Positions 1,433-36,000 are shown, numbered from the stretch's first letter. The stretch: 64,000 nt of DNA from Oceanirhabdus seepicola (GCF_023684385.1 NZ_JAGSOJ010000007.1:144148-208147); one strand, 5' to 3'. Notes: generated from the letters alone by a model not told the origin. Translations and numbers: made by a program.

Positions 1433-1488
1433 AAAAGATTTTAGTATTCAGAAAAATATCCATATATTTAGGCGATTGAGGTGTAATA

Positions 1489-2745: not shown

Positions 2746-2775
2746 GTGGTATTATATAGGAAAGGAGGGGATTTT

Positions 2776-3576
2776 GTGAAAATTTTCATAAGTGCAGATA
2801 TTGAGGGAGTAACGGGGACAACTCATTGGAATGAGACTATTAAAGGAAAAGTAGAGAGTGAATTTTTTAGAGAACAGATGACAAGAGAAGTAAAGGCTGC
2901 ATGTGAAGCTGCTAATAAAGCTGGTGCAAAAGAAATATGGATTAAAGATGCTCACGGAACTGCAAGAAATATAGATTTTAGTCAGTTACCTAAAAATATA
3001 AAGATGGTTAGAGGTTGGGCAAGAGATCCATACTCTATGGTTCAAGGAATTGACGATTCATTTGATGCAGTTATGTTTATAGGATATCATTCAGCAGCGG
3101 GTAGTGATGGGAACCCGTTATCACATACTCTGAATCCCTCAAAGATATATGAGATGAGGATAAACGGGGAGAGAACATCAGAATTTATGCTTTACTCTTA
3201 TGCGTGTCAATATCATAGAGTTCCATCTGTTTTTCTAAGTGGGGATAAGAAGATGACTGAAGAAGCAAGGCGTATTAATAGTAATATTAATACAGTAGCT
3301 GTATTGGAGGGAGTAGGTAATTCTACAGTGAGTATTCATCCAGATGTAGCTGTTGATAGAATAGACAAGCAAGTTACAAGTGTCCTAAATGAAGATAGAA
3401 GTAAATTCAACATAGAACTTCCAAAGGAATTTAAACTAGAGATACAATATGTGAATCATTATGATGCATATACATATTCATTCTATCCAGGAGCGGAACT
3501 AGTAGATGAGAGAACAGTTAGATTTATCTCACAGGATTATTTTGATATAATTAGAGCAATTTTATTTATGAAATGA
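2776..3576 (+). CDS. M55 family D-aminopeptidase (DppA-like)
   Basis: The product begins 'VKIFISADIEGVTG', which matches the DppA N-terminal signature. A GTG start lies 5 nt after the RBS 'AAAGGAGGGG'. The ORF-track start at 2746 is probably too early. Confidence 0.75.
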   Translation: MKIFISADIEGVTGTTHWNETIKGKVESEFFREQMTREVKAACEAANKAGAKEIWIKDAHGTARNIDFSQLPKNIKMVRGWARDPYSMVQGIDDSFDAVMFIGYHSAAGSDGNPLSHTLNPSKIYEMRINGERTSEFMLYSYACQYHRVPSVFLSGDKKMTEEARRINSNINTVAVLEGVGNSTVSIHPDVAVDRIDKQVTSVLNEDRSKFNIELPKEFKLEIQYVNHYDAYTYSFYPGAELVDERTVRFISQDYFDIIRAILFMK

Positions 3577-15970: not shown

Positions 15971-16669
15971 TAATCAACTTCAGATAAAAGTCTATTGTAT
16001 AGAAGTATACTATTTGTAATCTTTAGAAGTTCCTTATCAAGTATGTCATTTCCTTTTAAATCACATATCATCTTGAACTTTTCAATAGAGCTTTTGGTTA
16101 TGGGCCCTATTATCCCATCAACAATAAGAGGTTTATTTTCATAAGCTAATATCCCAAGTGAATTTAAGTTCTCCTGGAGTTTATTAATTAGTTCATTGTT
16201 ACTTTTAGTAATCTTACTTTTAATTTAATCATATTTATATAGCTCATTCTCCTCAATTATATATAAGTTTATTAGGATAATCAGGGTCAGTGCAATATCC
16301 ACAAGTATAAAGATTATGACAGCCTTCATAATAGTCTTTTGAGTTAATAACAGGTATATATCTAGATGCTTTAGATAGAAGCTCAGCATAATCATCAAAA
16401 CTATCTTCATAGCTGTTATACTTTCTAAATAAGCACATCATAGGAGTTTTAACTCCATTTATCCATTCATAAGTTTGAAGTTCTTCATATTCAAAACCAG
16501 ATTTTCTAGTCCTTTTAATACCAAATAGATTATTCCCTTTACAGTATTTTAGCCATCCAGTTTCTAGTATTACTTGAGCGATAGTTACTGATGGCAAAAG
16601 TGAATATTTTTCGTCAATCTTTTTTGCATAAGGTAATAATAAAGAAATGACCTTTGACTTGAAACACAT
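15971..16669 (-). pseudogene. Endolysin-like cell-wall hydrolase: N-terminal glucosaminidase domain plus C-terminal PG_binding_1 domain, disrupted by a frameshift
   Basis: The glucosaminidase ORF runs 16253-16669 ('AQVILETGWLKYCKGNNLFGIK', 'YCTDPDYPNKLI'). It has no signal peptide and a 'GGAGGTG' RBS. The peptidoglycan-binding repeat ('LQENLNSLGIL..IVDGIIGPITKSSIEKFK') continues at 15971-16227 in a different frame with no start codon. Confidence 0.65.
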
Positions 16670-16885: not shown

Positions 16886-17506
16886 ATGCCTATTAAAGAA
16901 ACAAAGATAAGATTATTTTCAAGTGAATTTGAAGAAATGATTAATAAAAGGCAGGTTTCTTCAGATACTGTTTTCATAGATAAAAAAATATGGAATGAGT
17001 ATGGAAAAACCTATAGTATTATGGTTACTGATTTAAGCGGATTTACTAGTAATTCCATTGAGAGAGGAATTTTGAATTTTATTTCATTAATATATGAAGC
17101 TATGATTTTAACAGAGGCTATTGTAGAAGAAAACAATGGAGAGATTTTAAAAACAATTGGGGATACATTTGTAATTCTTTTTCCAAATCCTAAGGATTCA
17201 GTAAAGTGTGCTATAGAAATTCAAAATGCTTTGAGGGTAAGTAATAAAATAAAAGCTGAAAGTTTAAAGCTGCACATGAGTGTAGGTATTGGATATGGAC
17301 AAGTCTTAAAAGTAAGTAATAATGATATATTCGGTGTAGAGCTTAATATAGCTAGTAAACTTGGAGAAGATATAGGAATACCTAATGAAATTTTAATTTC
17401 AGAAGAGGTTAGGAATTATATAAATGAATACGAACTTCTATATAACTATGAATTAATTACCACAGAATATAATATTGGAAAAGTTTATAAATTAAAGTTT
17501 AAGTAA
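16886..17506 (+). CDS. Minimal class III nucleotidyl cyclase (adenylate/guanylate-cyclase fold, 206 aa)
   Basis: The catalytic motifs are 'VTDLSGFT' (metal-binding Asp), 'KTIGDTFVILF', 'VGIGYGQV' and 'GVELNIASKLGE'. A G7 tract forms the RBS. Confidence 0.8.
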   Translation: MPIKETKIRLFSSEFEEMINKRQVSSDTVFIDKKIWNEYGKTYSIMVTDLSGFTSNSIERGILNFISLIYEAMILTEAIVEENNGEILKTIGDTFVILFPNPKDSVKCAIEIQNALRVSNKIKAESLKLHMSVGIGYGQVLKVSNNDIFGVELNIASKLGEDIGIPNEILISEEVRNYINEYELLYNYELITTEYNIGKVYKLKFK

Positions 17507-17869: not shown

Positions 17870-18695
17870 ACAAGTCTTAGTTATAAATTAAAGGAATTAC
17901 CAAATGATTGGTTTAGATTAATAAAGATAAGAGAAATTATGGATAAAAAAGAAGAACTATCAGATAAGAGAGAATTAAAAAGTGAGAAATTAAATATATT
18001 AGAATGTGCATTAGAGGATTATAGAAAAGCATCTGAAATATTATTTAAATAGATTAGAAGAGGAATTAAAAGACTATCAAATAGCAATAGAAATAAGAGA
18101 AAGATTAGATAAAGAAGGAAAGCTCCCAGATAAAAATTATTTAGTTCAAGTGTACTATAATAGGGTCTTTGTACTTTTAAGGAAAAATCAATATAATGAA
18201 GTTTTAGAAGAAGCATTAAAAGGACTAACTATTTATGTTGATAATCTTCATAATGGAAGGTTTTTATATAATATTATAGTTACTTTAATGCATATGGTAA
18301 CAATGATTTCTAATAAACAAAAATGTTTAGAGAGGTATATTCCATTAGTTGTATCTTGTTTTAAAAGTATTAAAAATAAAGAAGTTACAGAGAAATCTCA
18401 AAAGATGCTAGAAGAAATTGCCTTTGTAATTAATGAAAGAATGGAAAAGGAAAATAAGAAAGATGTACAAGAGTTAATCAGTAGAATTAAAGAGATTTCA
18501 ATAAAAAGACAAGATGATACTAGTGATGAGTTTTTGTTAGCGGATATAATGGAGATTGAAGGTAGTCTTTATGGTTATTACTTTTCTAAGGCTCAGAAGG
18601 AGTTACTTGTATTAAGAATTGTAATATCACAAAATAATGTAAAGGTAGAATTTATTGAAGATGTTAAAGAAATTGAAAGCTATAGAGGAATATAG
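17870..18695 (+). pseudogene. Remnant of a TPR/helical-repeat transcriptional regulator (Rgg/RNPP-like C-terminal domain), frameshifted
   Basis: The ORF at 18150-18695 continues upstream in-frame as '..EEELKDYQIAIEIRERLDKEGKLPDKNYLVQVYYNRV..' with no start. Further upstream (..ECALEDYRKASEILFK*) the sequence continues in another frame. No HTH domain is present. Confidence 0.4.
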
Positions 18696-18811: not shown

Positions 18812-21427
18812 ATGAAAAACGTACAATTTAAATTTATTGGACAAGGATCCACTGTTAGTAGTGAGTCAAAATCAGATATCTTAAAACCAAAGAGCAATAG
18901 AATATTCTTAGATGTAGGGAATGCCTTAGATTATAAAAATATAATTATTGATAATCATCAAGAATACTCTAAGTACGATAGTAATAAAGAGAGACCTATT
19001 AGTGTAGCAAGTATTTGTTACAATGAAAAAGACGATATAGAAGAATATCTTCAAAGAATAGAAGAGGACGAAGTTGAAATTGTACTTCATAGCGAACCAG
19101 ATATTGATTGTATTGTTTCTGCCTTCATTATTAGTAAGTACCTAAATAATGAAAAGTTACATAAGGATATGTCAATCATAGTAGATTGTGTTGAACAAAT
19201 TGATTCCGGAAGAATGGAATATAAAAACAATGAAATAATTAATCCTTGTTTCATACCATATGCACTAGATGAGGTTCTTAAAAGACAGAATAATCAAAAA
19301 AATAAATATGAAGAGAAAAAAGCTCAAGAGGCGAAAGAAAAAGGAGAAAGAACACATAAGTATGATATTAACGAAGAAGTAGTTCAAAAAGGTTTTAAGT
19401 TGATTGAAGTAATTCTAAAGTGCTTAAGTAAACTAGATAAAAAAGAAAAATTTTTAGATAATGTTGATATATCAAAAGAAACAGATCTTTTTGAAGAAGA
19501 ATTGATGCTTTTAAAGAAAGATTATGATCTTTACTTAGAAGAGAGAAAGAATGCTGAAATATGTTATGAAAGTAAAGTGAAGCTACCTATAAAAAATAGC
19601 TATGAGAATGAATTAAAAGAGGTGGATGCTTTATTTTGGAATGGAAAATCAAAGTGTATTCTTCATAAGTATTGGGCAAGACAAGATAAAACTGCTCCTT
19701 TAGGAGAAGGATTTATTTTTACATTTATTCTATCACAAATATTAAAAGGAGAGCATCAAGAAAAAAGAATTAAGCATAGGGACATTAATGTTAATAGAGT
19801 TATTATATCTGTAAATCCTAGAAGTGATGTTTCATTAAAAGGGTTAGGAGAGGCACTTGAAAAAGGAGAATGCTTTAAGGAGAAAGAATACTTTAAAAGT
19901 AGAGTAAGTTTATGGAGGAATAGGGGCAAGTCTAGGTTCCCAGAAGAATGGTGTGATAATGATGATCCATGGTATGATGGAAGAAATTTTGATTACACAA
20001 TAGTTGATTCTCCAAGAATAGGAAGTCTTATGAGTATTAGTGAAATAAAGCATATTGTTAATAATTTTACTGCTCCATTAGTAGAGGATTATTTAATAAA
20101 ATATGTTATACCATTCACAATTGATGAAAAGAAATATACTCAACTATGCAAAAAACTCAATAAGATTAAAGGAAATAATCTAGAAGAGGATGAAATTAAA
20201 GAATATTTTTGTAAACCAATACAAACATATTTATTTGAAAATTCCATTGAAGAAAGTAATTCTGGAAATCGTAGTTTTAACTGTAATAAATACTCTTATG
20301 ACATAAAAAGCTTGATAAGAGAAAATATGCTTAATGAAGTTAATGGAAAAACCCTGAATATATCAGATAATATCCTTAATATTATTGTGTTTAAATATGG
20401 AATAGGTTTCATTCATTTTGATATTGAAATTCAAAATGAAGAGAGCAATTTGCGTTTTGATGAGATTCTTAATATTAAGTATGATTTAAGCAATAATACT
20501 ATTGAAGAAAGAATATTCAATAAACTAATTGAAGGAATAAAAATAAAAGAATATGTTGTAGAGAAGAAAAAAGTAATGTTCTTCTCTGGCATTAGTATAA
20601 AATCGAATATATATTATGAAGAAAAGCATAAGAAAATGATATATAAGCAGATGAATTCTATGAACTGGAAAGGCGTTAATCATAATTCTAGATATATGAA
20701 TTATTTCATAGATAGAGATATTATTAAAGCAGACGAAAATACTTATTATGGTTTTAGTAAAAATGGAGGTGCACTACTTATTATTGACGATAATGATAAG
20801 TGTGAAAATTGTACAAGCGACCAGAATGGTGAATCAAATAAGTTGAAATGTATTAATGAATGTGGAAGAAATAAAAATAAAAAAAGTATTCATGATTATT
20901 TTGGAAAAAACGATTTTTATTTATTTTTAATAGCATTACAACAAAGATTGAGTTTACTAGCTTTTGACAATAAACTATCTGTATATGATAAAAAAAGCCA
21001 AAAAAGAGATATACAAAGATTAAGAGGGTTACTGGTTAATTTCACAACACAAGGGTGGTTCAGTGAGGTAACTGAAGATAAGATAGGAACTGTACTTTAT
21101 AAGAAATGGACAGAAATTTTTGAAAATACAGATTTATATAATGAGATTTATAGCCAGTTATCAGCAGTAGATGATTATTATAAAGCAAAAATGTCAAATC
21201 AATTAACACTTATATCAGCCATAACATTTCCTATGGTTTTTATAGGATCAATAGCAGGATTATATGATACAGGATATATGACAAGTGGTAGACAAGTATT
21301 TGAGTTAAAATGGATACCAGCTACAGAAGAGATGGTTGGAGCTTTAAGTATAGGTTGGGGATGTTTTTCTACATTCTCTCTTATGGTATTTTTAATTGTT
21401 ATAATATTTTTCTATCGGAAGAGATAA
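18812..21427 (+). CDS. 871-aa membrane protein with a divergent DHH-family-like N-terminal domain, a central helical region and a C-terminal CorA-like two-TM pore domain
   Basis: The N-terminal 'IVLHSEPDIDCIVSAFIISKYL' fits DHH motifs I/II (H..PDxD..S), and 'SIIVDCVEQ' fits the motif II Asp, but no canonical DHH triad follows. The C-terminus 'NQLTLISAITFPMVFIGSIAGLYDTGYM..ELKWIP..FFYRKR' aligns with the CorA TM1-GMN-TM2 region, with 'DTG' in place of GMN. The RBS is 'AAAGGAGAAGAG'. Confidence 0.65.
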   Translation: MKNVQFKFIGQGSTVSSESKSDILKPKSNRIFLDVGNALDYKNIIIDNHQEYSKYDSNKERPISVASICYNEKDDIEEYLQRIEEDEVEIVLHSEPDIDCIVSAFIISKYLNNEKLHKDMSIIVDCVEQIDSGRMEYKNNEIINPCFIPYALDEVLKRQNNQKNKYEEKKAQEAKEKGERTHKYDINEEVVQKGFKLIEVILKCLSKLDKKEKFLDNVDISKETDLFEEELMLLKKDYDLYLEERKNAEICYESKVKLPIKNSYENELKEVDALFWNGKSKCILHKYWARQDKTAPLGEGFIFTFILSQILKGEHQEKRIKHRDINVNRVIISVNPRSDVSLKGLGEALEKGECFKEKEYFKSRVSLWRNRGKSRFPEEWCDNDDPWYDGRNFDYTIVDSPRIGSLMSISEIKHIVNNFTAPLVEDYLIKYVIPFTIDEKKYTQLCKKLNKIKGNNLEEDEIKEYFCKPIQTYLFENSIEESNSGNRSFNCNKYSYDIKSLIRENMLNEVNGKTLNISDNILNIIVFKYGIGFIHFDIEIQNEESNLRFDEILNIKYDLSNNTIEERIFNKLIEGIKIKEYVVEKKKVMFFSGISIKSNIYYEEKHKKMIYKQMNSMNWKGVNHNSRYMNYFIDRDIIKADENTYYGFSKNGGALLIIDDNDKCENCTSDQNGESNKLKCINECGRNKNKKSIHDYFGKNDFYLFLIALQQRLSLLAFDNKLSVYDKKSQKRDIQRLRGLLVNFTTQGWFSEVTEDKIGTVLYKKWTEIFENTDLYNEIYSQLSAVDDYYKAKMSNQLTLISAITFPMVFIGSIAGLYDTGYMTSGRQVFELKWIPATEEMVGALSIGWGCFSTFSLMVFLIVIIFFYRKR

Positions 21428-21499: not shown

Positions 21500-22453
21500 C
21501 TATTTTAAAGAATTTAGTTCTGAGTTTGTCCAAGACTTAACATGATCAAGGAACAAGTTTAACTCTTGTGAGTCTTCGTCTAAAGGAGTATTTATATCAG
21601 CCACTGTATAAGTGTTCCACACCCTATCGAAAATTCCATCACTGCATACATCGTGCTGACATAAAACAAAAACCTTTAAACCAAGTGCATTAGCAAGTCC
21701 ACCTTCTAGATGTAGCCAACCAGAAGTATATTTGCGATGAACCTCTTCAGTTTCATGACTTGTCCCTTCTTTTTCTCTTAAAAAATAAGCGTGACTTTTT
21801 TCAAGTCCTAATATTACGGCACCTTTACATTGGCTCATTAATTCTCTGATTTTGCCTATAGGATCATGTTTATCATATACAGTAAGGTTAGCACGAACTA
21901 TTTTTATTCCAATAGACTCAAGCTTGTATATAATAGTTTGAATAAAATACTCTTGTTCAGGAGTGTGAGGAGTAATAGTGCTTAGAAATACAGGAACTTT
22001 ATTATCGGGTTTTTCTATTATTTGTTCATTGATTTTTTCATGTTTAGGTGTAGAGAAAGTTTTGTACCAATTTAAGATTACTTCTATCCCAGCAGTTATA
22101 AATTTAGCATCTTCAACCAAAGTCGTCTTTGGTAATCCAGTATGATGAACTAATCTATTTCTGGTGCTTCGAATATTATCACATCTTTGTATAATTTCAT
22201 TTGGAATGGAAGGGAAAGTAGCAGAATGATTTTTATTATATTGATTTAATCTTTGTATTGAACCATTAAGGTCATATGATTTACTATTTGAAATATCTAA
22301 ATCATATGATAGTTGGTTTAAAAATGATTCTATAAAAACAGCACCCCATATTGCACATGAGAAATATTCCTTATTTTCATGGCTTAACATACAATTTTTT
22401 AAATGATAAAAAGATGTTTCTTGTAAATAATCTCTATAATCATTTATGTTCAT
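21500..22453 (-). CDS. Two-domain protein: N-terminal DUF4145/HEPN-like domain plus C-terminal nucleoside 2-deoxyribosyltransferase-like (NDT/Rossmann-like) domain
   Basis: 'IRSTRNRLVHHTG' fits the DUF4145 signature R-x2-(G/R)-N-x3-H and the HEPN Rx4-6H motif. The C-terminal 'KVPVFLS..' and 'SGWLHLEGGLANALGLKVFVL' match the NDT-like motif (D/S-G-T-x-x-E-x-G-x-A-x-A-x-G-K-P-V). The RBS is 'AGGAGGA'. Confidence 0.55.
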   Translation of the reverse strand: MNINDYRDYLQETSFYHLKNCMLSHENKEYFSCAIWGAVFIESFLNQLSYDLDISNSKSYDLNGSIQRLNQYNKNHSATFPSIPNEIIQRCDNIRSTRNRLVHHTGLPKTTLVEDAKFITAGIEVILNWYKTFSTPKHEKINEQIIEKPDNKVPVFLSTITPHTPEQEYFIQTIIYKLESIGIKIVRANLTVYDKHDPIGKIRELMSQCKGAVILGLEKSHAYFLREKEGTSHETEEVHRKYTSGWLHLEGGLANALGLKVFVLCQHDVCSDGIFDRVWNTYTVADINTPLDEDSQELNLFLDHVKSWTNSELNSLK

Positions 22454-23316: not shown

Positions 23317-23650
23317 TTAGATATTGGTAATAAATTACATTATGGTGTTATAGTCATCATCATTTGAAAAGAGATTTTCGTGTACAACTTCATTAGATAC
23401 AATATCAAAGGATTTGATTCCTGTACCTAAGGGAAAAGTTTATAATATTATTATACATTTTTCTACAGACTTTGACTCACTAGCATCAATTTATTTGGTA
23501 ACGGTATACTTAATAAATGGTGCGTTTCCTAAATATACAGATGATTTAATAGAGTATGTTGAAATAATAGATTCAGGGAGAATGAGTATAGATAAGTTAA
23601 ATTTAAAATGTCCTGCGACAGTTGCTAATTTTTTAGAAATGTCAGTATAG
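23317..23650 (+). pseudogene. Fragment of a second DHH-like/CorA effector gene, a paralog of the 18812 N-terminus, frameshifted
   Basis: 'LDIGNKLHYGVIVIII*' matches 'LDVGNALDYKNIIID'. In the ORF at 23414-23650, 'IIIHFSTDFDSLASIYLVTVYL...IEYVEIIDSGRM' matches 'IVLHSEPDIDCIVSAFIISKYL...IVDCVEQIDSGRM'. The two pieces are in different frames. Confidence 0.6.
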
Positions 23651-24102
23651 AAGCAATAAGGATGAATTAGGCATGAAGCTTTATAATTATTGGGATAATA
23701 TCTTTCAAAACAATATTTTATATGAAGAGGTAACAGAGCGATTAGCTTCAGTGGATGAATATAAAAGAATTGAATGAGATAGAAAAGTGAATAAAATAAC
23801 AGCGATATTTATACCTATAATTTTGTTAGATTAAATATTTGCCATTGGGATATTTGAGGGAATAAATCCAATCAAGATAAGTTTGTTAATAACAGTAATA
23901 ATAACTCGTGTATAATACCACTTATAAGATTTTATTTAGACTTCGAAAAAAATAAATAATGAAATGGGATATAAAATAGAATTTAAATTAAAGAATTTTA
24001 CACTAAGGCTAAAATGTTATTAAACTGTTTTAGTCTTTCTTTATGTAAAAATAAAAAGTATAAGTAAAGCATAAAATTAAAATATCAATAAAGGAGCTGA
24101 TT

Positions 24103-26862
24103 ATGGATAATAATCCTAAGTTAAAAGAAACACTTAATGAATTATGTTTTTATTTACCATTAGAAGTGCAAGTAGATATTGAAGCAGCTTATGATCATTT
24201 GTTAAGGGATAGCAAAAATTATTGTGATGCTATTCAAAGATTAAGGAAAGCAGGGGAAGCGATTACTGCATTAATGGTTGAAGCTTTAGAATACAAGCCA
24301 GCAGTATCAAGAAGTGGAAGTCCAAAGACAATTGCTAGTCAACTAAAATACATAGATGATAAAGATTTCGTTTTTAGTATGGAGGTTGTAAGAGAGAAAG
24401 GTAATGATGTATCACATTCTTCACTAGGAAAAGATAAAAATAGATACAATTTAGAGATGGTATATGAAATATTTAAAAACTTCATTAATTGTGTGATTAT
24501 CTATATTACTAGAGGGTTACATGAAGATGATATTACAGAAAAATTAAATGAAATCGAAAAGAAACACAGTAATAATAAATATAATAATTTGAGTCTTGAG
24601 CAACCAGATGCTTTTGAATCCGAAGATAAAAATCAAGAGTTAGATACTAAAGGTGAAAAAGAAGAGCAAGTTAAATATGATGAGACAAATGATGAAAATA
24701 AAAATTCCAATATGAGTGAAGCTATTGAAAACATGAATTTTCAAAAGTTCCATATTAAAAACGAGAGTTTTAACAATAATGAAATCTTAAAAGATTACTC
24801 ATTTATTAAGTCAGCTAGAAGTTATGATGAAAGAAGAATATATCAAAAGAAAACTTACTTTGATATTGATGGTATTGAAATTGAAAAATCATATATTACT
24901 ACTGATGATATAGGGGAAATAATTTCAACATATGAGGAAGGAGATAAATATAAACTAATAAAGGGAGATTTTGATAGAAATAAAAATAAAAGATTAATTA
25001 TAATAGGTTCAGAAAAATCCCGTGGTAAAAGATCAACAGCAATTAAACTTCTCAGGGAATTAAAAAAGAAAAATGAAATTTTTTATTTTTCTCAAGTAGA
25101 TGAAAGTATAAAACTATACAATTTAAAAAAATATTTGAAAGATAAAAATATTTCCTACAACAAATCTTACATTATTAGAATGCATATAAGCGATCTGTTT
25201 GACTTAAATAAAAAGAATACCTTAGATGAAATTAATCTAGAGTTGAAAAAAAAGCATTCGTACATGGTAATTATTTCGCAGGATAGCTTTGATGACAAAA
25301 AATACAATGAGTATTATTATTCTTGGAATATGGATATAAACTTAGAAAAGATCATGAAAAATAAGATAAAATTCTTTGAGAAATCCTCTAAAAAGTATAA
25401 AAAGTATATTGAAAAATTGAAAGAGGCTGAAATATTTGAAGAACTAAAGCAAGTTCCAATAAGTCCTAGCCTTATAGCTGTTTATGTAAGAAATATTTTG
25501 GAAAAAGATCCACAGCATCCTGAATTTGCTTCACAAGCTAAAAAAGCATACCCTGCAAATTTAAAAGAAGAGGCTAGAAATACAATAGAGAATAATAAAA
25601 ATGATTTAGATGTGCTTTGTAAATTGTTATGCTTAAGTTTATTTCGCAAATTAAACAAGCCTCTATTTAATGACTTAAGTGAAAGTCTGATGCTAAACTT
25701 TAGTGAACTTGTTAATGAAGAAGAAAGACAAGAATTCATGAGTAAAGAGCGCTTGTTAAAGAATGACTCATATGTGGCAGAGAAAATTAATGCTAAAAAA
25801 GAAGTACAAATTATAAAAAGCAATTATGGAGATATTGAAGAAAGTTTCATTGAATTTGAAAATACTCAATTTTACGAAAAAGTATTAGAAAATCTTCTTG
25901 AGAATTATACAAGTATATACAAAGTAATTAGAGAATGGATATTAAAGAGATTTTTATATTTCAATCCAGTATTGGTTCAACTATTTATACCGAGTTTTAA
26001 ATACTTATTTATCAATGATAAGAAAACTATAATAAATACAATTTTAAGTCCATTGGTTAAGAAGAATTCGAAGTACGGTATAAAAAATATATGCACACTC
26101 ATAAATGCTTTAATAGAGATTGATAATGAGAATTTTATAATCGAATTTATTGAAAGAGTTAAGGGAATTAAAAAGCAAAGAGTTAAGAAAATAGTGTTGA
26201 ATTCGATTCCTAAAACACTTCATAAAAAATATCCTTTTAGGACCATTATGATTTTAAGACATTACATTGAGAAAGCATCCTCAATAAAAGAGATTGATGA
26301 ATGTTCATTATGTTTAAGTTTAATGATTGATCATAAAGTAATAAGAGATAATAGGTACATTGCATTAGAAGCTCTGGAAAATTGGTGTTTTGATTGTGAA
26401 GAGGATGAATTTTTTAGAACTAAATCTAAATATATATATCTAAATGCTCTGTACTACAACATGTATAAGAGTGATTATTGCTTTGTGATTGAATATTCGG
26501 AAAATATCGACTTATTAGAGGAGCAAATACTGCCACTATATGAATTGATTTTAAAGGATAAATTTATGCTCAAGCATTTCATTGAGTATATATTCAATGA
26601 AATAAAGTTTATTGGTGAAAAAAAACAAGATCTAGATGAAAAAGTTGATATTATTGAAAATATTCTAACCTTAGTACTAAAGGAAATTAAATTAAGTGAT
26701 AAAAGATATAGGAAATCATTTTTCCCTAAAATTAATTACTGGTTAAGAAAATACAGTAGGGAGTTTAAAGCAGAGAAAAATTTAATTGATATAGTTTTAG
26801 ATAATGTTATTGAAGATAATTATGAAAGGAGAGAACTTTTAAATGAAGGACTTATTGATTAG
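24103..26862 (+). CDS. 919-aa protein with an N-terminal DUF4145/HEPN-like domain, an acidic linker, a possible degenerate P-loop and a C-terminal alpha-helical repeat region
   Basis: 'VVREKGNDVSHSSLG' matches the DUF4145 signature (R-x-x-G-N-x-x-x-H). 'LIIIGSEKSRGKRSTAIKLL' is Walker-A-like but off by one residue (Gx5GK). The RBS is 'AAAGGAG'. The 3' end overlaps the next gene by 20 nt. Confidence 0.55.
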   Translation: MDNNPKLKETLNELCFYLPLEVQVDIEAAYDHLLRDSKNYCDAIQRLRKAGEAITALMVEALEYKPAVSRSGSPKTIASQLKYIDDKDFVFSMEVVREKGNDVSHSSLGKDKNRYNLEMVYEIFKNFINCVIIYITRGLHEDDITEKLNEIEKKHSNNKYNNLSLEQPDAFESEDKNQELDTKGEKEEQVKYDETNDENKNSNMSEAIENMNFQKFHIKNESFNNNEILKDYSFIKSARSYDERRIYQKKTYFDIDGIEIEKSYITTDDIGEIISTYEEGDKYKLIKGDFDRNKNKRLIIIGSEKSRGKRSTAIKLLRELKKKNEIFYFSQVDESIKLYNLKKYLKDKNISYNKSYIIRMHISDLFDLNKKNTLDEINLELKKKHSYMVIISQDSFDDKKYNEYYYSWNMDINLEKIMKNKIKFFEKSSKKYKKYIEKLKEAEIFEELKQVPISPSLIAVYVRNILEKDPQHPEFASQAKKAYPANLKEEARNTIENNKNDLDVLCKLLCLSLFRKLNKPLFNDLSESLMLNFSELVNEEERQEFMSKERLLKNDSYVAEKINAKKEVQIIKSNYGDIEESFIEFENTQFYEKVLENLLENYTSIYKVIREWILKRFLYFNPVLVQLFIPSFKYLFINDKKTIINTILSPLVKKNSKYGIKNICTLINALIEIDNENFIIEFIERVKGIKKQRVKKIVLNSIPKTLHKKYPFRTIMILRHYIEKASSIKEIDECSLCLSLMIDHKVIRDNRYIALEALENWCFDCEEDEFFRTKSKYIYLNALYYNMYKSDYCFVIEYSENIDLLEEQILPLYELILKDKFMLKHFIEYIFNEIKFIGEKKQDLDEKVDIIENILTLVLKEIKLSDKRYRKSFFPKINYWLRKYSREFKAEKNLIDIVLDNVIEDNYERRELLNEGLID

Positions 26863-27979
26863 AGATTATGAAATTGATAAAAGCGTGACGAAGTTATTTT
26901 CTATTAACAGAAAGATTAATGATATTAATATTTCTATGGGAGAGTATCATGTATTACTAAATGAATCTACTGGAAAACACGATGTGTTTGAGTTTGGAAA
27001 TAAGATGCCTAAAACATCTGATTTGATAAAATTCAAGTACAATAAAGGATTTGTACTTAAAAAAAATGCACAGCATATTGATGGAGAATATAAATATAAT
27101 TGTTTAAAAACTAATGATGATTATTATGTGATTTATAGCTTGAAGTATAAAATTAATAATCCTTTAAAAGTTTGTGAAAATATAAATTTGGGTAAAGGCT
27201 CTAAAGAACTTATTAAAAATACAGTAATTCAATATATAAAAAAAGTCTTAGAAAGAAATATTAAATTTGATGTTTATGAATATGATTTGTGTAAGGATGT
27301 AATAGATAATTCATTTAGAGTTATATCATTTGAATCTTTAAATGAACAAATAGAGAACTATGGTATATTAATTGATAAGTGTGAAATAAATGTTACAGGT
27401 AGTAAGGCATTTAAAGAAGAAAGTCAGATGAGATTTAACAACAAAAGAAGTGTTAGGATATTAGAAAATGAAGTTATTACAAAAGATGAAATGAGTGGGT
27501 TAGAAGTTGAAAAGAATAAGATTGAGAATATAGTTAAAAAGAGTAGGGAAATTGAAGGTGTTAAAGTTGAAAATGAAATAGACAGGAAAAGAATAGAAGA
27601 GAGAGTCAAGGTTTTAGCATCAGTAGAACAATATATTGATGATCCTAAAAAATTAGCCTTGTTAAATGAAGAGTTTTATAATAAGGTTCAAGCAGCTGAT
27701 TCAAATGACATTGCTAAGAGAGTTGAAATTGAGAAAGCTAAACTGGAAATTAACAAACAAAAATTGGATATAATCTTAAAAATGAGAGAAGAAGGATTGG
27801 ATGATTATGAGATTGAATCTTTAACTAAGCAGGTGTTTGGATTAGATGATACTTCCAGTGATAACCATCTCAGTGGAAATAGCCGAGAGACAAAACGGTT
27901 AACCAATGAAAGTAAAGAGGAGGTAGAAGAAAGAAAGAATAAATATAAAGGGAAATTTGGAAAAAGGGAAAATGACTAA
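26843..27979 (+). CDS. Divergent SPFH/band-7-like domain protein with a C-terminal charged coiled-coil
   Basis: The fold pattern runs 'GEYHVLLNESTGKHDVFEFG..', then 'TNDDYYVIYSLKYKINNPLK', then '..SKELIKNTVIQYIKKVLERNIKFDVYEY..YGILIDKCEINV', and ends in a KE-rich coiled coil. The gene is translationally coupled to the 919-aa gene. Confidence 0.5.
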   Translation: MKDLLIRDYEIDKSVTKLFSINRKINDINISMGEYHVLLNESTGKHDVFEFGNKMPKTSDLIKFKYNKGFVLKKNAQHIDGEYKYNCLKTNDDYYVIYSLKYKINNPLKVCENINLGKGSKELIKNTVIQYIKKVLERNIKFDVYEYDLCKDVIDNSFRVISFESLNEQIENYGILIDKCEINVTGSKAFKEESQMRFNNKRSVRILENEVITKDEMSGLEVEKNKIENIVKKSREIEGVKVENEIDRKRIEERVKVLASVEQYIDDPKKLALLNEEFYNKVQAADSNDIAKRVEIEKAKLEINKQKLDIILKMREEGLDDYEIESLTKQVFGLDDTSSDNHLSGNSRETKRLTNESKEEVEERKNKYKGKFGKREND

Positions 27980-27995
27980 GAGGGGGTAGTTTGTA

Positions 27996-28865
27996 TTGTC
28001 GAACTTGTGGATTGAATTTGGGGCAATAATATTTATTACTTCGCTTATTTCAATAATATTATTATTGAAAATTTTTATAAAGCCCTTACTATTTATTTTT
28101 AAAATAGTAATTGCTATATTAACGAGCATATTGTATAAAATTGCTTCAATAGCAAATGGGTTAAGGGGATTATCAGATTTTTCAGATAATATTGCATCAA
28201 TATTTAATAAGAAATCTCAGAAGAGTGATAGTAAAAAAAAGGTGTTTAGAAAAAGTTTGCTTATATCTATAGGAATTACAGTTATAAGTTTATTTTTAGC
28301 TAAGCAGTCCAACTTAGATATAACTAAGTACCAATATTTCACTAAATTAATGAACATTGAATATGTGAAAGACTTTATAGGGAATGAAGATACAAGTAAT
28401 ACAAGTGCTAAGAGTGTAGAAAATAAATGGAATCATAATTTTAGTGAGGATGATTTGGTATACCTAAATAGTAGCGCAAAAGTATATGAATATGATGAAA
28501 ATAAAAAAGTACTAACTGTGGAAAGTAAAGTACAAAATAATAATACTAAAGCATATAAAGATGATTTTATTTTAGTTAAAGATGAATATTTTATAAAAAT
28601 TATATTTGATAATGGAGAAGAATTTTTTGTTAACCCTAAAGATATTATAAAAACCTCAAAATATGCAATAGTAAATGCGAAATCTTTAAATTTAAGAAAA
28701 GAACCTAAAGTTAGCAAAGGAAATATCTACTGTGCTATTCATAAGAACGAAAAAGTTAATGTTATATATGAAGATATTAGTGAAGAATGGATATTAGTGT
28801 CTACAGGGGAATATGCAGGATTTGTGTATAGTAAGTATATAGATATTAGTACAAATACTGAATGA
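27996..28865 (+). CDS. Membrane protein with two N-terminal TM helices and a C-terminal SH3b-like beta domain (NfeD-like partner?)
   Basis: The TM region is 'FGAIIFITSLISIILLLKIFIKPLLFIFKIVIAILTSIL'. The C-terminal 'AIVNAKSLNLRKEPKVSKGNIYCAIHKNEKVNVIYEDISEEWILVSTGEYAGFVYSKYI' fits the bacterial SH3 pattern. A TTG start follows the RBS 'GAGGGGGTAG'. Confidence 0.5.
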   Translation: MSNLWIEFGAIIFITSLISIILLLKIFIKPLLFIFKIVIAILTSILYKIASIANGLRGLSDFSDNIASIFNKKSQKSDSKKKVFRKSLLISIGITVISLFLAKQSNLDITKYQYFTKLMNIEYVKDFIGNEDTSNTSAKSVENKWNHNFSEDDLVYLNSSAKVYEYDENKKVLTVESKVQNNNTKAYKDDFILVKDEYFIKIIFDNGEEFFVNPKDIIKTSKYAIVNAKSLNLRKEPKVSKGNIYCAIHKNEKVNVIYEDISEEWILVSTGEYAGFVYSKYIDISTNTE

Positions 28866-29820: not shown

Positions 29821-30379
29821 ATCAAACATGTCGATACAAGTTCTTGCAGCTATGTTTTCATGATCAAGCTGAACAAATATTGAGGCAATATATTTAGGGT
29901 GATGACTGTTAATGTTGGTATTTGGATAACAGACGGAGTGGAGGTGGGTATCAGTATTACAATTGGAAGAATGTTAGCATCTACAGGGGAAGAGATATAG
30001 ACAAAGTGGGAGCACAGTGTTACAGGCATAATATCCACACAGTCTTAATTTGAATTGAAGGGAATTACATGTTTGAGGAATGCCAGAGATTTAAAAACAA
30101 CGAGATATAAGTTTGTGTAACTATTTAAAAATATTAAAACTCTATTTCTTATGCATTTGTATTTACCTAATTATTAATATATTTCCATGATTTTCATTCT
30201 TATTATTTACATTTTATCTTTAATATAATAACATATATTTATAATTAAATTATATAATAGTAATATTGGGTCAACATTCCACGAATATGGAGAATTCATA
30301 GTGACCTTGGGAGAAGTGAAAAAAATGGAGTGGAAGATAGTAGTACATAGCTGTGGTGACGGTGATAAAGGGGGTTGTT

Positions 30380-31024
30380 ATGACTGAGTTGTTAAAAAAT
30401 GCTTTTACAGGGATAAATATTATTCCAACTGTGTTGTTGTTAATAGTAGTTTTCTATTGGATCGGCGTTATTTTCGGGGCATTAGGTTTTGATTTTTTAG
30501 ATTTTGAGCTAGATGGTGCTGATAATTCAGGTCCATTCTATGCAGTATTATCATTTCTAAATTTAGCGGAATTACCTTTTATGTTGGTCTTTAGTATTTT
30601 AATTTTAAATTTTTGGATAATAGCTATGTTGATGTATTATCTACCAATAGTCTCTGGAGGTCCAGTAAATGCGGTATTGCTGCTACCTGCTATGGTGGTT
30701 AGTATGTTTATCACAAAGTATGAGACGGTTCCCTTAAAGGGAATTTTCAATGACAGCAGTGTGCAGGAGGAAAGAGGGCGTGAAGTAATTGAACATGAAT
30801 GCATACTTAAGTGCGATTTGGAAAATGGACGATTAGGACAAGCGGAGATAAAAAGAGATGGAGCTTCAATAGTGATAAATGTGAAGTCGGAATTCCATGA
30901 AGAGTCATTCCATAAAGATGAGGTTGCATTTGTTATCAGAAAAGACACTGATAAAAATATATATTATATAGTTAAAATGGAGGAGAAGAAAAATGAGTTA
31001 TTTGATTCAGGTACTATTAGTTAG
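30380..31024 (+). CDS. YqiJ/NfeD-like inner-membrane protein (DUF1449-like), partner of flotillin
   Basis: It has three or four TM helices and a C-terminal soluble beta-rich domain. The ATG at 30380 follows 'AAAGGGGG'. It lies immediately upstream of, and overlaps, the flotillin gene. Confidence 0.6.
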   Translation: MTELLKNAFTGINIIPTVLLLIVVFYWIGVIFGALGFDFLDFELDGADNSGPFYAVLSFLNLAELPFMLVFSILILNFWIIAMLMYYLPIVSGGPVNAVLLLPAMVVSMFITKYETVPLKGIFNDSSVQEERGREVIEHECILKCDLENGRLGQAEIKRDGASIVINVKSEFHEESFHKDEVAFVIRKDTDKNIYYIVKMEEKKNELFDSGTIS

Positions 31025-33008
31025 TATTGTAGCAGTTATTGCAGTAGTCGCAGGATTACTGGCATTGTTTTCTTTGTTCTACCATAAGGTAGAGCAGGGT
31101 AAAGTTATAATAAGAAATGGTGTTGGTGGGCAGAAGGTATCCTTTGGTGGTATGTTTGTAGTACCAATCGTACACAAATACGAAGTTATGGATATTTCTG
31201 TTAAAAGAGTTGAGATTGCTAGAGAAGGTAAAGACGGTCTGATATGTAAAGACAACCTTAGAGCTGATATCAGAGTTGCATTCTTTGTAAGAGTAAATCA
31301 AACAAGAGAAGACGTACTTAAAGTTGCACAGCTTTTAGGATGTCAGAAGGCATCTGATCCTACAACTTTGATGGAATTCTTTGATGCTAAGTTCTCAGAA
31401 GCATTAAAAACGGTTGGTAAGAAGTTTGACTTTGTTCAGCTTTATACTGAAAGAGAGACTTTTAAAGATGAGATTCTTCAAATTATCGGAACTGACTTAA
31501 ACGGTTATGTTATGGATGATGCTGCCATCGATTATCTTGAACAAACTGACGTTAATCTCTTAAATAGTGATAATATTTTAGATTCAGAGGGAATTAAGAA
31601 AATAACTGAGCTTACTGCAAAACAGCTGATATTAGCTAACCAGATTGAGAGAGATAAAGAGAAAACTATAAAACAACAGGATGTATCTGCAAGAGAAGCA
31701 ATATTAGAACTTGAAAAGCAAAATGCAGAGGCTGAGGCTAAGCAGAAGCGAGAAATCTCTATTATTAATTCTAGAGAAACAGCAGAAGCGGAAAAAGTAG
31801 CTCAGGAAGAGAGATTTAAGTCAGAAATGGCAAGAGTTAAAGCAGATGAAGAAATTGAAGTTGCTGAGCAAAATAAAGAGAGACAAGTAATTGTAGCTAT
31901 GAAAGCAAAAGAAAGTACAGAAGCAGTTGAGAATGAAAGAGTTGATAGAAAAAGATTACTTGAAAGAACAGAGAAAGACAAATTAGTTGAACTTGCCGTT
32001 ATTGATAAGGAGAAAGAAGTCGAAGTTGAAAAGAAAAATATTCAGTCAGTTATTAGAGAGAGAGTAACAGTTGAGAAAGATACTGTTGTTGAAGAAGAGA
32101 GAATCAAAGATACACGTGCAATAGCAGAGGCAGAGCGTTATAAGACTGTAGCTATCAAAAAAGCTGAAGAAGAGGCTGAAAAGGAACGTATTATTAAAGT
32201 TAGAACAGCAGAGGCTTCAAAACAAGCTGCTGAATGCATTGCTGAGAAGACAATTATCGATGCGGATGCTAAACTTAAAGCTTCACAGAAAGAAGCAGAG
32301 TCAATTAAAGTTATCGTTGATGCTAAAGTTCTTGAGGAATCCACTAGTGGTATAGCAGAATCAAAAGTTATTGAAGCAAAAGCACTGGCACAGGCTAAAG
32401 GTGATACCGCTAAGATTGATGTAAAAGAGAAAGAGGGTACAGTTGAAGCTGATATACTGAAGAAGAAGTACATGGCAGAAGCAGAAGGTATCAAAGAAAA
32501 AGCTGAGAGCATGAAGGCTCTTGATGAAGTTGGTAGAGGACATGAGGAGTTCAAACTTAAGCTTGAAAAAGAGAAGGCGATTGAACTTGCTAATATCAAC
32601 ATCCAGAAGGATATTGCAGAATCTCAAGCTGCTGTTATCAACGAAGCTCTTAAATCAGCTAATATCGATATCGTTGGTGGAGAGACAATGTTCTTTGATA
32701 AAATTATTGGTTCTATCACTCAGGGTAAATCATTTGACCGTCTTGTAGATAACAGTGAAGTACTTACTGATATCAAAGAGACATTTATCACTGGTGATCC
32801 AGAATACTTTAAGAAACAATTACAGGAGTTAACAAATAGATTTAACCTTACATCAGAAGATCTAAAGAACCTGTCAATAGCTGGTGCAGTGAAAAAGATG
32901 ATGAAGGATGCTGACGGGTCTGATAAGACAATGCTGGGTAAATTATTAGATACAGTTAATAAAGCAGGGGTTGGTAATATTCCAGCAAATATGATACAAG
33001 GCAAGTAA
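30993..33008 (+). CDS. Flotillin-like SPFH/band-7 domain protein (YqiK/FloT-like, 671 aa)
   Basis: It has an N-terminal TM helix and the SPFH core ('GGQKVSFGGMFVVPIVHKYEVMDISVKRVEI..LICKDNLRADIRVAFFVRV'). A long flotillin-type EA-rich coiled coil follows ('EAEAKQKREISIINSRETAEAEKVAQEERF...'). Confidence 0.85.
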   Translation: MSYLIQVLLVSIVAVIAVVAGLLALFSLFYHKVEQGKVIIRNGVGGQKVSFGGMFVVPIVHKYEVMDISVKRVEIAREGKDGLICKDNLRADIRVAFFVRVNQTREDVLKVAQLLGCQKASDPTTLMEFFDAKFSEALKTVGKKFDFVQLYTERETFKDEILQIIGTDLNGYVMDDAAIDYLEQTDVNLLNSDNILDSEGIKKITELTAKQLILANQIERDKEKTIKQQDVSAREAILELEKQNAEAEAKQKREISIINSRETAEAEKVAQEERFKSEMARVKADEEIEVAEQNKERQVIVAMKAKESTEAVENERVDRKRLLERTEKDKLVELAVIDKEKEVEVEKKNIQSVIRERVTVEKDTVVEEERIKDTRAIAEAERYKTVAIKKAEEEAEKERIIKVRTAEASKQAAECIAEKTIIDADAKLKASQKEAESIKVIVDAKVLEESTSGIAESKVIEAKALAQAKGDTAKIDVKEKEGTVEADILKKKYMAEAEGIKEKAESMKALDEVGRGHEEFKLKLEKEKAIELANINIQKDIAESQAAVINEALKSANIDIVGGETMFFDKIIGSITQGKSFDRLVDNSEVLTDIKETFITGDPEYFKKQLQELTNRFNLTSEDLKNLSIAGAVKKMMKDADGSDKTMLGKLLDTVNKAGVGNIPANMIQGK

Positions 33009-33095
33009 AAGAAAATAACAAGTCAGTATACTCGTATATTTGACTTGTTATTTTCTTCAACATGCCAAAACTACACGTGAATGAGGTAGATAAAG

Positions 33096-36000
33096 TTGGG
33101 CGCTATTGAGAATAAAGATATAAATGGTAAAAATGAAAATAAAGATATGGAGAACAGCACATATGAGGTCATTAAGAATCGTCTTATAAAACACGGTAAT
33201 GATTTGACGGAACGTGTTGAAGGTCTTAACGCTGCGAGAAAAGAGGTTTTCGGTTCAATTGAAACGAAGCTTCTCAGCAGCGAGAGGATATTAACAGAGC
33301 ACAACTGTATACCTAGAGACATGGCTCCAGTGGATGATTGTTTCATCTTTGGTTACAATGTCCATATAGGTCTTAAATCTAAGGTTGAACTGAGTGATGT
33401 ATTTTCGATATATGAATATAAAGACCATTCATTTCAGAAGCAGTCCTTTGAGTTAATAAATGACGAGAAGTTCTTAAGAGATTTTGATGAGCTGTATAAG
33501 TATTATAAGAATACTTTTTTTGCAAAGTTTACTATAATAGAACCGTATTTCTACATGATTTTTCAAACTGGAAAGAATGCCACTGATATTAAAGCTTTTA
33601 AATGGCTGATGGAGGGTGGTAAGCTGATATATGTTGACTGCAGAAGTGAACATGAAGTTAAGTTTATCAATAAAAATGAATTCAATTTTGTTAAAGCAAC
33701 AAGGGATGATCAGCGGAGCGGTGTTTATCCTCATGTTTCAATTTTGGATAAGGTCTTTGTGGAAACCATTAATGGAGATCTAACAATCAAAGTTGAGGAT
33801 AATACTGAGATAGGTAAGGGAATTTATTCAGAAGATGTTGAGGATAAGGACCAGAACCTTGATGATGCTGAGATATTCTATGCTGATTTAGGTGAAATAA
33901 TAATTCTTAAAATTCGACCATTTAAGGAAAGTGATTATAGGTACTTCGTTTTTAACAACAAATTAAAGAATGTTGTAAGAATCGATTCAATTAAAGATAC
34001 TTGTATGCTCCTCCCCGGGAACCATGGACTCATTTTCCCAAAAGGATATTATCTGCAGAACGGTGAATATAAAATATTTGATGTTCCAACTGAGAATTCA
34101 GTATTTGATCAGATGATTAGTTCATCTAATGGTGAAGACTATCAGTATATTTTTTATAACATCGAAAGCGGTATATATTTAGTATATTCATATAACATTA
34201 TAGAGCAAACAATAGAAATGCCAATTGTTTGCAGCGGATACTCACATTTCAATAATGGAGAAATGATTGTATTTAAACATGAAAATGAACCAAGAAAGAA
34301 TCATATGATACAGATATGGCAAACACCTTATGTGGGTAAAAATTATGTAAGTGAAGGTAACACCGATTCAATCTTATTTAATATCGGTAATAAGGATATC
34401 GTCAACTGTATGGCTGATTGTAAGATTGTATACAAACTCATTCAAAAAGGTGAGAGCTATCAGAGTATCTACATTGATATAGTAAAAGAATCAGAACAAA
34501 TAATTGATACGTATTTTTGGTTAGATAAACAAGAAGCGTATAATTTAAAAGAAGTGCTTATACGTATAAAAGAGACATCAGCTTTTGCAATTGGTGAGTT
34601 TGAAAAAGTAGTAAGAATAAAGAATTCAACCCAAAAGCAAATAAGTGATGTAAAAAATGAATCAGAGGAACTCCTCAAAAAACTAGAATATGGAACATTT
34701 TATACAGTTGACGAATATGTAAGGGTATTAGCTGATATACGAAATCTTAGAGGTAAGATTGTCTCACTAAGGGATTTAAGATATACGGACCTTACAATCG
34801 TTGATTCACTTGACACTAGAGTTAAAGAAAAAAATGAGGAATTCTCTAAGAAGTGTGTTGAGTTCTTAATCCAGCCAGAAGGGCTTAAGATTTACTCTGA
34901 CAAAGTACAAGAGTTACAAGATGGCATTGACAAGGTTAATAAATCAAAAGAAGGAAAAGAACTTTCAGAAAAGATTGATGAAACCTCTAGCGATTTAGAA
35001 CTTCTCATAGATATTCTAGGTAACTTTAAGATTGATGATCCTACCATGACAACAGAGATAATAGAGAAGATTTCATCATTGTTCTCTTTGATTAATAATG
35101 CCAAGGCAAGGTTAAAAACAAGGGTAGAGGAATTTTCTAAAAGTGAAATGTCTACACAGTTCAACTCCCAAATGAAATTGCTTAGTCAAGCTGTAGTAAA
35201 TTATTTAGATGTTTCAGATACAGTAGATAAATGCGATCAGTATCTTAATAAGGTTATGGTTCAAATACAGGAATTAGAAGGAAAGTTTGCTGAATTTGAT
35301 GATTATGTACTAAAACTTAGTGAAAAAAGAGAAGAGTTATATAATGCCTTTGAAAGCAAGAAACAGTCGCTTTTAGATAAGTTAAATAAACGAATGGTTG
35401 GATTATTTACCTCATCTGAACGTATTATGAACGGAATAGCTAATAGGTTAAAGAGTTTCGATACTGTTGAGGGGATTAATGGATATCTAGCTACTGATAT
35501 AATGGCTGAGAAGGTTAGGGATATTATCTCTGAATTAAGAAATCTCGGAGATAGTGTTAAGGCTGATGAGATTAGTTCAAGATTAAAGACGCTAAAAGAG
35601 GATACCATTCGTCAGTTAAAGGATAAGCAAGAACTGTATGTAGATGGAGAAAATGTCATAAAATTGGGCAAGAATCACTTCTCGGTAAATACAAAAGCTA
35701 TAGATCTTTCCATGGTACAAAAGAATGATGAATTGTATTATCATATAACAGGAACAGATTTCTGGGATAAGGTAGTTCATAAGGATATAGAGAAGTACCA
35801 GAGTGTGTTTGAACAGAGTATCGTATCAGAGAATAGAGATGTTTATAGAGGTGAATATCTCGCTTATTCAATCTTTGAAGGAGCAAGAAATAAGCAATTT
35901 GAAAGCTTAGATATTTTGTATTCAAAGACAGATACCCAATTAGTTGAAGTTGTTCAAAGGTTTATGGAGCCGAGGTATCAAGAGGGATACACTAAAGGGG

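Follow-up and report, generated by a model that had tools for sequence, protein, structure and literature searches.

What kind of system is encoded by three tightly packed genes in a low-G+C part of the genome of Oceanirhabdus seepicola (Clostridiaceae)? The genes, here named g1, g2 and g3 in 5'-to-3' order, lie within a 64-kb stretch of DNA (hereafter the window), and coordinates are those of this whole stretch unless another locus is named. A first-pass annotation made from the sequence had described them as an operon for a DUF4145/HEPN-like protein of STAND/Avs-type layout, an SPFH/band-7 protein and a membrane protein with an SH3b domain. We consider it fairly probable that the triad forms the conserved core of one branch, Clostridial, rare and highly divergent, of a conflict- or defence-type operon that recurs in other bacteria and is composed of a variable effector, an nSTAND3 NTPase, an SPFH-like scaffold and a transmembrane (TM), wall-binding protein. 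The function in defence is inferred.

All three open reading frames (ORFs) were intact, and their annotated coordinates and close spacing were reproduced. On the plus strand, g1 (24103-26862, 919 amino acids [aa]) starts with ATG downstream of an AAAGGAG ribosome-binding site; g2 (26843-27979, 378 aa), also with an ATG start, overlaps g1 by 20 nucleotides (nt); and g3 (27996-28865, 289 aa) begins with TTG 16 nt past the g2 stop, with GAGGGGG ahead of it. A plausible ribosome-binding site precedes each gene. The products of g1 and g2 were 100% identical to hypothetical proteins of O. seepicola at NCBI, and the two peptides that had been quoted from g1 were found at residues 97-105 (REKGNDVSH) and 299-312 (IIIGSEKSRGKRST). 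Because two further contigs carry all three with their order preserved, g1, g2 and g3 are genuine genes and not chance ORFs. No significant family was assigned to g1 or g2 by Pfam, NCBIfam, PADLOC or PHROGs.

Judged by profile comparisons, g1 is a highly divergent STAND protein of the nSTAND3 type. Its product is devoid of TM segments and appears to comprise a helical HEPN/DUF4145-like domain (residues ~1-160), an acidic low-complexity linker (~160-265), an nSTAND3-type NTPase module (~270-620) and a helical ARM/HEAT-like region (~620-919). A HMMER scan of 1.84 billion representative proteins with a g1 profile recovered only two full-length relatives, P0002 and P0005 (E value of 1.8e-88 for P0005). 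Three partial relatives (P0006 to P0008) matched over ~390 residues, at profile positions 269-661, with E values from 6e-7 to 4e-5, and these proteins scored above the gathering score of Pfam nSTAND3 (PF20720). Reciprocally, a profile built from six nSTAND3-type proteins detected g1, P0002 and P0005 with per-sequence E values of 1.8e-23, 1.1e-26 and 6.7e-17, respectively, whereas none of 90 shuffled controls scored better than 7e-4. g1 itself gave no PF20720 match at an E value of ≤0.1, and its Pfam scan was empty. HMMER ties the central region of g1 (residues 270-614) to Pfam nSTAND3 proteins, in agreement with the STAND-type reading of the first-pass annotation. Conservation extends through residues 575-620 (E..N..F...L...W.EY......W). 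In an AlphaFold2 (AF2) model based on a two-sequence alignment (predicted local distance difference test [pLDDT] of 40.5), the secondary structure was all-helical from ~400 to 917; the last 300 residues were predicted to be all-helical, and the helical C-terminal region that had been annotated is borne out as a prediction of low confidence. Foldseek comparison of this low-confidence model with the PDB returned weak, generic ARM/HEAT-like matches (E ~1e-2 to 1e-3, TM score of <0.2), and faint HEAT matches were seen in relatives. PDB sequence-profile searches with g1 and with its N terminus revealed nothing relevant.

The triad is syntenic elsewhere. It recurs with its order kept in L001 and L005, the only other loci with a g1 homologue, at identities for g1, g2 and g3 of 44, 44 and 35% in L001 and of ~27, 27 and 24% in L005. 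For g2, too, L001 (44% identity, E 2e-106) and L005 (~27%) were the only loci with homologues; the g3 homologue in L001 was detected with an E value of 1e-49, and in L005 the g1 and g2 homologues also overlap by 20 nt. A word-indexed search of 5.8 billion proteins yielded a single homologue of g1 and a single one of g2, which share a 6.5-kb Logan contig. No further loci of the g1 clade were found in four DNA-pattern scans, two of genome contigs, one of metagenome contigs and one of viral contigs. Both genome-contig scans also missed the g1 of the source genome itself, which at NCBI lies on a 252-kb contig; the species representative in the collection may be another assembly or may be devoid of the island.

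A wider family with matching gene order comprises eight loci around distant nSTAND3 relatives (L006, L007, L008, L009, L010/11, L012, L013 and L014); this wider operon is found in cyanobacteria, Desulfobacterales and Clostridia-like contigs. In all eight, the gene directly 3' of the NTPase encodes a protein of 313-375 aa without TM segments. These middle genes belong to a family, A10 (23 members by sequence search), in which 9 of the 23 members match Band_7 (best E value, 5.6e-10) and some are named "SPFH domain-containing" in the source databases, one of them at NCBI. The next gene usually codes for a TM protein of 240-300 aa, and N-terminal TM segments were present in every third-gene product tested (L007 to L010). 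The C terminus of the third-gene product carries LysM in L010/11 and L014, a sub-threshold SH3b-like domain in L007 (E 0.1) and a sub-threshold NTF2-like DUF4829 in L008 and L009. Candidate effectors beside the NTPase differ from locus to locus: a caspase-like Peptidase_C14 protein in L006 and, downstream of the NTPase, in L010; a PGAP1/alpha-beta hydrolase in L009; a DUF7379 protein in L012; a stand-alone HEPN-like protein in L007; and a small TM protein in L008. Read from the sequences, a glycine-rich motif (..SGG.YF....I.GD.VGG..) is present in the effectors and in the adjacent nSTAND3 N termini of L006 (genes at 205-1104 and 1126-3306 of that locus) and L008 (127-561 and 644-2911), located at the C terminus of the caspase-like effector in the former and at the N terminus of the small TM protein in the latter. 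This motif probably represents an effector-NTPase adaptor, and a degenerate trace of it may exist in g1 at residues ~215-245. The effector-adaptor logic of NTP-dependent conflict systems fits this pattern (PMC7159879).

The N-terminal domain of g1 connects its branch with this wider family. Residues R48, E52, N101, S104 and H105 were invariant in four aligned sequences; G100 was present in the three g1-clade members and replaced by Ala in L007. In L007, the NTPase (P0007) has no such N-terminal domain, which is encoded by a separate 226-aa gene immediately upstream. A three-sequence hidden Markov model (HMM) of the g1 N terminus matched the 226-aa protein with an E value of 3.8e-4 (search of four sequences). 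The stand-alone domain in L007 therefore links both branches and places the domain in the variable effector slot. Assignment of this domain to DUF4145/HEPN, as put forward in the first-pass annotation, is plausible but not established. In its favour, the R..E and GN...H (GNxxSH) pattern resembles the DUF4145 consensus, a lead rather than a test, and a weak chain runs through the L007 protein, which gave the sole DUF4145 signal (sub-threshold, E 0.075, 13.5 bits versus a cut-off of 23.1). However, at E ≤10 DUF4145 (PF13643) matched neither g1, whether scanned whole or as residues 1-150 only, nor its homologue from L001; P0005 had no match at E ≤0.1.

g2 occupies the position held by the SPFH/Band_7 gene in the related nSTAND3 operons. 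Its product has no TM segment and consists of an N-terminal alpha/beta part (~1-195), a charged helical, coiled-coil-like part (~215-330) and a charged tail. Direct comparisons gave the SPFH fold that had been annotated no support from Pfam, PDB, HMMER or hhalign. Band_7 (PF01145) was not matched by g2 at E ≤0.1 or by its two homologues at E ≤1, a PDB profile search with g2 retrieved no SPFH chain at E ≤1, and the HMMER comparison of full-length g2 with family A10 was non-significant (E 0.47). hhalign assigned a probability of 0.08% to the match between g2 and a five-sequence SPFH alignment (HflK, HflC, QmcA, YqiK and flotillin), a negative result that is uninformative because the Band_7-positive family A10, used as a control, was likewise negative against the same alignment. 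Between the g2 clade and the middle genes of the distant operons, hhalign probabilities were <1%, and a PDB sequence-profile search with the A10 family gave nothing relevant. The alpha/beta domain of g2 nevertheless aligned colinearly with A10 over ~150 residues, at marginal scores: the domain from the window reached 5.6 bits, above 286 of 286 shuffles, and those of the other two homologues exceeded the mean of the shuffles by 2-2.5 standard deviations. Among real sequences, the g2 profile scored best against the bridging locus, L007. In an AF2 model from a two-sequence alignment (pLDDT of 38.0), the order of strands and helices (five strands, helices, strand, long helices) was compatible with SPFH at low confidence; Foldseek found nothing in the PDB with this model. 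Mainly on the strength of positional equivalence to a Band_7/SPFH gene in related operons, we give g2 a somewhat better than even chance of being an SPFH protein.

By hydropathy and domain search, g3 encodes a membrane protein that has three TM segments and ends in an SH3b domain. Three hydrophobic segments were recognized, a two-TM hairpin (~2-56) and a third segment at 83-102, where only two TM helices had been annotated; the SH3b part of that description was correct, as SH3_3 (PF08239) matched residues 230-283 (E 3.3e-6, 27.6 bits versus a cut-off of 27.0, profile positions 2-54 of 54). A weak precomputed SH3_3 match also exists for the homologue in L001. Because g3 contains three hydrophobic segments, the SH3b domain is predicted to be extracytoplasmic; the basic cytoplasmic loop carries a conserved L-S-D motif. 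No NfeD domain (PF01957) was matched in g3, and HMM comparisons with E. coli YbbJ and YqiJ were non-significant, so that the "classic SPFH/NfeD arrangement" of the annotation had to be given up except as an analogy. HMM comparison with the third genes of the wider family was also non-significant, save for the SH3b part shared with L007.

A fourth gene, overlooked in the first pass, encodes a CorA-like protein that accompanies the triad in every locus of the branch. In L001, a 477-aa CorA-like gene (PADLOC CorA, 5e-14) ends 33 nt before the g1 homologue; in L005, the corresponding gene codes for 867 aa and the distance is 27 nt. In the window, an intact fusion of DHH (NrN-like) and CorA-like parts (18812-21427, plus strand, 871 aa; PADLOC CorA, E 6.6e-21; weak Pfam DHH, E 0.003) lies 2.7 kb upstream of g1. 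It can be aligned with the 867-aa protein of L005 over its full length (25% identity, E 4e-48) and, with two C-terminal TM helices (797-818 and 844-870), is probably a membrane effector. Directly abutting g1, a decayed DHH-CorA-like gene was found on the plus strand (23381-23903). tblastn with the 871-aa protein recovered two fragments of it, corresponding to aa 69-136 and 755-855 (E 2e-6 and 5e-8, 32% identity), with in-frame stops; the middle part of ~1.8 kb is missing, and DHH N-terminal and CorA C-terminal parts remain. The 867-aa protein of L005 also matched positions 23697-23903 (E 0.01). Because a CorA-like gene abuts the triad in L001 and L005, and as a remnant in the window, the ancestral unit of this branch is a (DHH-)CorA-like gene followed by g1, g2 and g3. 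A type III CRISPR locus was considered as the reason for the CorA gene and rejected, since neither cas genes nor repeat arrays are present in the 64-kb window.

The surroundings of the triad agree with the accessory-island setting that had been annotated. The genes lie inside a stretch of low G+C content (~15200-39100; 25-29% versus 30-36% in the flanks), which is bounded on both sides by Opp-type ATP-binding cassette transporter regions and other housekeeping genes. No tRNA or integrase gene was seen in the window. The island also harbors a PycC-like cyclase and other defence-type genes. The cyclase belongs to class III of the nucleotidyl cyclases (16886-17506, plus strand, 206 aa; Pfam Guanylate_cyc, 1.9e-12; PADLOC PycC, 4e-7), and a gene for a 181-aa protein (18150-18695, plus strand) is located between it and the 871-aa DHH-CorA-like gene. 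The arrangement could be Pycsar-like, the cyclase sending its signal to the 871-aa protein as a CorA-type effector that carries its own phosphodiesterase. Short upstream peptide fragments at the ends of the L001 and L005 contigs, compared with the window, did not match the 181-aa protein; the sole window match of the L001 fragment was elsewhere and at chance level. A small glucosaminidase-domain gene (16253-16669, minus strand) is also within the island, and a 1.65-kb stretch upstream contains no long ORFs. The neighbouring gene annotated as "DUF4145-NDT" encodes a 317-aa protein (21500-22453) that is indeed on the minus strand and displays IRSTRNRLVHH, an RNxxxH (HEPN-like) motif, in its N-terminal half, but no Pfam family was matched even at E ≤10, nor were there matches in NCBIfam (E ≤0.01), PADLOC (E ≤0.1) or PHROGs (E ≤0.05). 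Nor does it resemble the N terminus of g1. Downstream of the triad, a YqiJ/YqiK-type pair (30353-33008, plus strand) comprises a YqiJ-like protein of 223 aa (E 2e-5 to E. coli YqiJ) and a flotillin/YqiK-like protein of 671 aa (Band_7, 3e-7; E 6e-42 to YqiK), and is followed on the same strand by a 1645-aa protein with DUF3686, DUF7902 and an AAA ATPase. The pair and the ATPase (30353-38033) form a second SPFH-containing module in the island.

Several described systems share features with the triad operon. nSTAND3 includes Avs5 (AVAST type 5), which comprises SIR2-nSTAND3-repeat proteins (bioRxiv 10.1101/2025.07.08.663546). The NTPase module of g1 is homologous to proteins above the PF20720 gathering score, and the predicted layout of g1 is tripartite, with an N-terminal candidate effector, the NTPase and C-terminal helical repeats. 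In contrast to nSTAND3 proteins including Avs5, g1 falls below the Pfam model and has Ser for the first P-loop Gly; moreover, its N terminus is HEPN-like instead of SIR2, and it always occurs with two membrane-associated partner genes and a CorA-like gene, whereas Avs5 is a single-gene system. A STAND-type NTPase core with swappable effectors (caspase-like, hydrolase, HEPN-like and TM) is likewise reminiscent of the conflict systems described by Kaur, Burroughs, Iyer and Aravind (2020, PMC7159879; 2021, PMC8195603), which are NTP-dependent and have effector-associated adaptor domains, as is the short motif common to effector and NTPase N terminus in the cyanobacterial-type loci; however, in PMC7159879 and PMC8195603 we found Band7-like domains only in the effector position of vWA-MoxR systems. 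With SPFH/NfeD pairs (QmcA-YbbJ, YqiK-YqiJ and PH1511-PH1510), g2 and g3 have in common that a putative SPFH and coiled-coil gene lies beside, and is tightly coupled to, a gene for a small multi-TM protein with a beta-rich domain. They differ in that the gene order is reversed relative to yqiJK, that g2 has neither a TM anchor nor a detectable Band_7 signature, and that g3 has an SH3b domain predicted to lie outside the cell and not the oligonucleotide/oligosaccharide-binding fold of NfeD.

The CorA-like partner, finally, matches PADLOC models of CRISPR-type CorA. The phosphodiesterase NrN (DHH) is found paired with or fused to CorA in type III CRISPR effectors that respond to S-adenosylmethionine-AMP (SAM-AMP) as activator (Chi et al. 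2023, PMC10600005). The window and L005 genes have an N-terminal DHH-like fusion, as in the nrn-corA fusions of Aliarcobacter, but the window gene has no cas genes within the 64 kb and is linked to the STAND triad and a PycC-like cyclase. In the literature, where subscription papers were thinly covered and absence is no proof, we found neither a described operon of nSTAND3, SPFH and TM-LysM/SH3b genes nor, with the same partial coverage, a STAND-linked CorA effector. The operon is apparently an undescribed multi-gene STAND subtype, a divergent form of STAND-centred conflict systems.

How such an operon would work can be outlined as a model. g3 would reside in the membrane with its SH3b domain on peptidoglycan, and its cytoplasmic loops would recruit g2, which would oligomerise via its coiled coil as SPFH proteins do. 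Together, g2 and g3 would form a membrane-attached, wall-anchored platform that holds or regulates g1. The helical C-terminal repeats of g1 might act as the sensor, responding to a phage component or to damage to the envelope, upon which nucleotide-dependent oligomerisation of g1 would switch on the killing modules, i.e., its HEPN-like domain (possibly an RNase) and/or the CorA-like channel, which would depolarise the membrane. The outcome would be abortive infection. A bolder version, which we advance only tentatively and regard as possible at best, is that the triad represents an undescribed class of envelope-coupled immune sensor, in which a wall-anchored SPFH platform reports a breach or holds the STAND switch at the membrane and interchangeable effectors, including in the Clostridial branch a CorA-type channel, are fired. 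In this version, a channel so far known only as an effector of type III CRISPR gated by SAM-AMP would for the first time be coupled to a STAND receptor.

Several observations weigh against placing the triad within a conflict-type operon family with a functional STAND switch. None of the three proteins matched a PADLOC model, the AF2 models of g1 and g2 are too poor for their folds to be assessed, and with three members in >5 billion proteins the branch is too small for its enrichment in defence islands to be gauged. The CorA copy adjoining g1 in this genome is decayed, and the intact 871-aa protein may serve the upstream cyclase instead of the triad. RNase activity of the g1 N terminus is doubtful, because the HEPN Arg is out of register across the three g1 homologues: the Arg preceding H105 is at -8 in g1 and at -7 in P0002, and Lys takes its place in P0005 (within a helical prediction of low confidence). 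In the motif alignment, the P-loop of g1 reads S303-x4-G308-K309-R-S-T312. The Walker A motif, annotated as degenerate, is so in its first Gly, which is Ser in all three branch members and in this branch only, but K309 and T312 are invariant and every relative examined has the GK-x-[STA]-T form. In addition, the "YIID" strand of the relatives is YIIR or YIVT in the g1 branch, with Arg or Thr in place of the acidic residue. Because of these two replacements, the module may bind NTP without hydrolysing it. Loss of hydrolysis is nonetheless not assertable, because a second candidate Walker B strand ("hhVIThD"), ~80 residues past the P-loop, retains an acidic residue within 1-2 positions (D394). 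A distance of ~80 residues is the usual spacing between Walker A and Walker B in STAND proteins such as APAF-1 and MalT. Lastly, comparisons of g2 with the middle genes and of g3 with the third genes in the wider family were not statistically significant, and their equivalence to these genes rests on position, size, architecture and marginal colinear HMM scores.

This last point leaves room for an explanation in which kinship with the nSTAND3 operons is confined to g1. A coiled-coil protein (g2) and a wall-anchored membrane protein (g3), both unrelated and lineage-specific, would by chance have similar sizes and order and would form no SPFH scaffold; g2 could then be, for example, a soluble adaptor or an antitoxin-like regulator of g1. 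All direct tests of g2 against SPFH or A10 were non-significant, the third genes elsewhere showed no significant match to g3 except in the SH3b part that it has in common with L007, and the fold search was empty, although with a g2 model of pLDDT 38. Yet the hhalign negative lacks power, given that the A10 control failed too, and in all loci the same gene order and tight coupling are found right 3' of a homologous NTPase. The lengths are alike (313-378 aa and 242-298 aa), TM segments are absent from all g2-like proteins but present at the N terminus of the tested g3-like ones, and a wall-binding domain (SH3b or LysM) ends the third gene in both branches. Marginal HMM alignments that are colinear over the whole alpha/beta domain, with L007 as the best target and g2 above every shuffle, also speak for relatedness. 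We therefore regard an unrelated origin of g2 and g3 as unlikely, and continue to favour a conflict-type operon in which they correspond to the scaffold and wall-binding genes of the wider family.

A function other than defence is less probable still. The triad might be a housekeeping or stress module, in which a CorA-type channel serves ion or envelope homeostasis under the control of a wall-tethered SPFH-like microdomain and a STAND-like regulator. As a rule, SPFH proteins act as scaffolds and regulators of membrane proteins. HflK/C is an SPFH example of such membrane-protein regulation (PMC12005517), and the analogy would be with HflK/C-FtsH or with stomatin regulating channels. A CorA-family channel is the constant partner in this branch, and the triad matches none of the known defence models. 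A housekeeping role is, however, difficult to reconcile with the very patchy distribution (three loci in >5 billion proteins), the location in a low-G+C accessory island, the match of the CorA-like protein to a CRISPR-associated effector type fused to DHH (PMC10600005), and the swapping of the NTPase partner among caspase-like peptidases, hydrolases and a HEPN-like protein, a conflict-system signature (PMC7159879); we consider it improbable. That the triad in this genome is a decaying, no longer functional remnant appears very improbable. The fragmentation of the abutting DHH-CorA gene, with its stops and ~1.8-kb deletion, the exchanges of P-loop Gly to Ser and YIID to YIIR, and the ORF-poor 1.65 kb upstream could be taken as decay. 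But none of the three ORFs is interrupted, and they have ribosome-binding sites and are translationally coupled; g1 has a candidate effector domain of its own, and an intact DHH-CorA paralogue is only 2.7 kb away. Moreover, the odd NTPase residues are common to all three members at 27-45% identity and are therefore a lineage feature under selection, not a sign of recent decay.

Work on bacterial STAND/NLR-type receptors has so far dealt mainly with soluble, single proteins whose ligands are phage proteins. If the proposed assignment is true, the triad operon would add a multi-gene STAND receptor that is tethered to membrane and wall and equipped with an SPFH scaffold, and, with its swappable effectors and conserved three-gene core, it would be amenable to cloning tests. 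To our knowledge, most bacterial SPFH proteins have no clear function; a concrete role would thereby be provided for some of them. CorA-type effectors, with or without an NrN phosphodiesterase, would then be used outside CRISPR as well, which raises the question of the signal that opens them.

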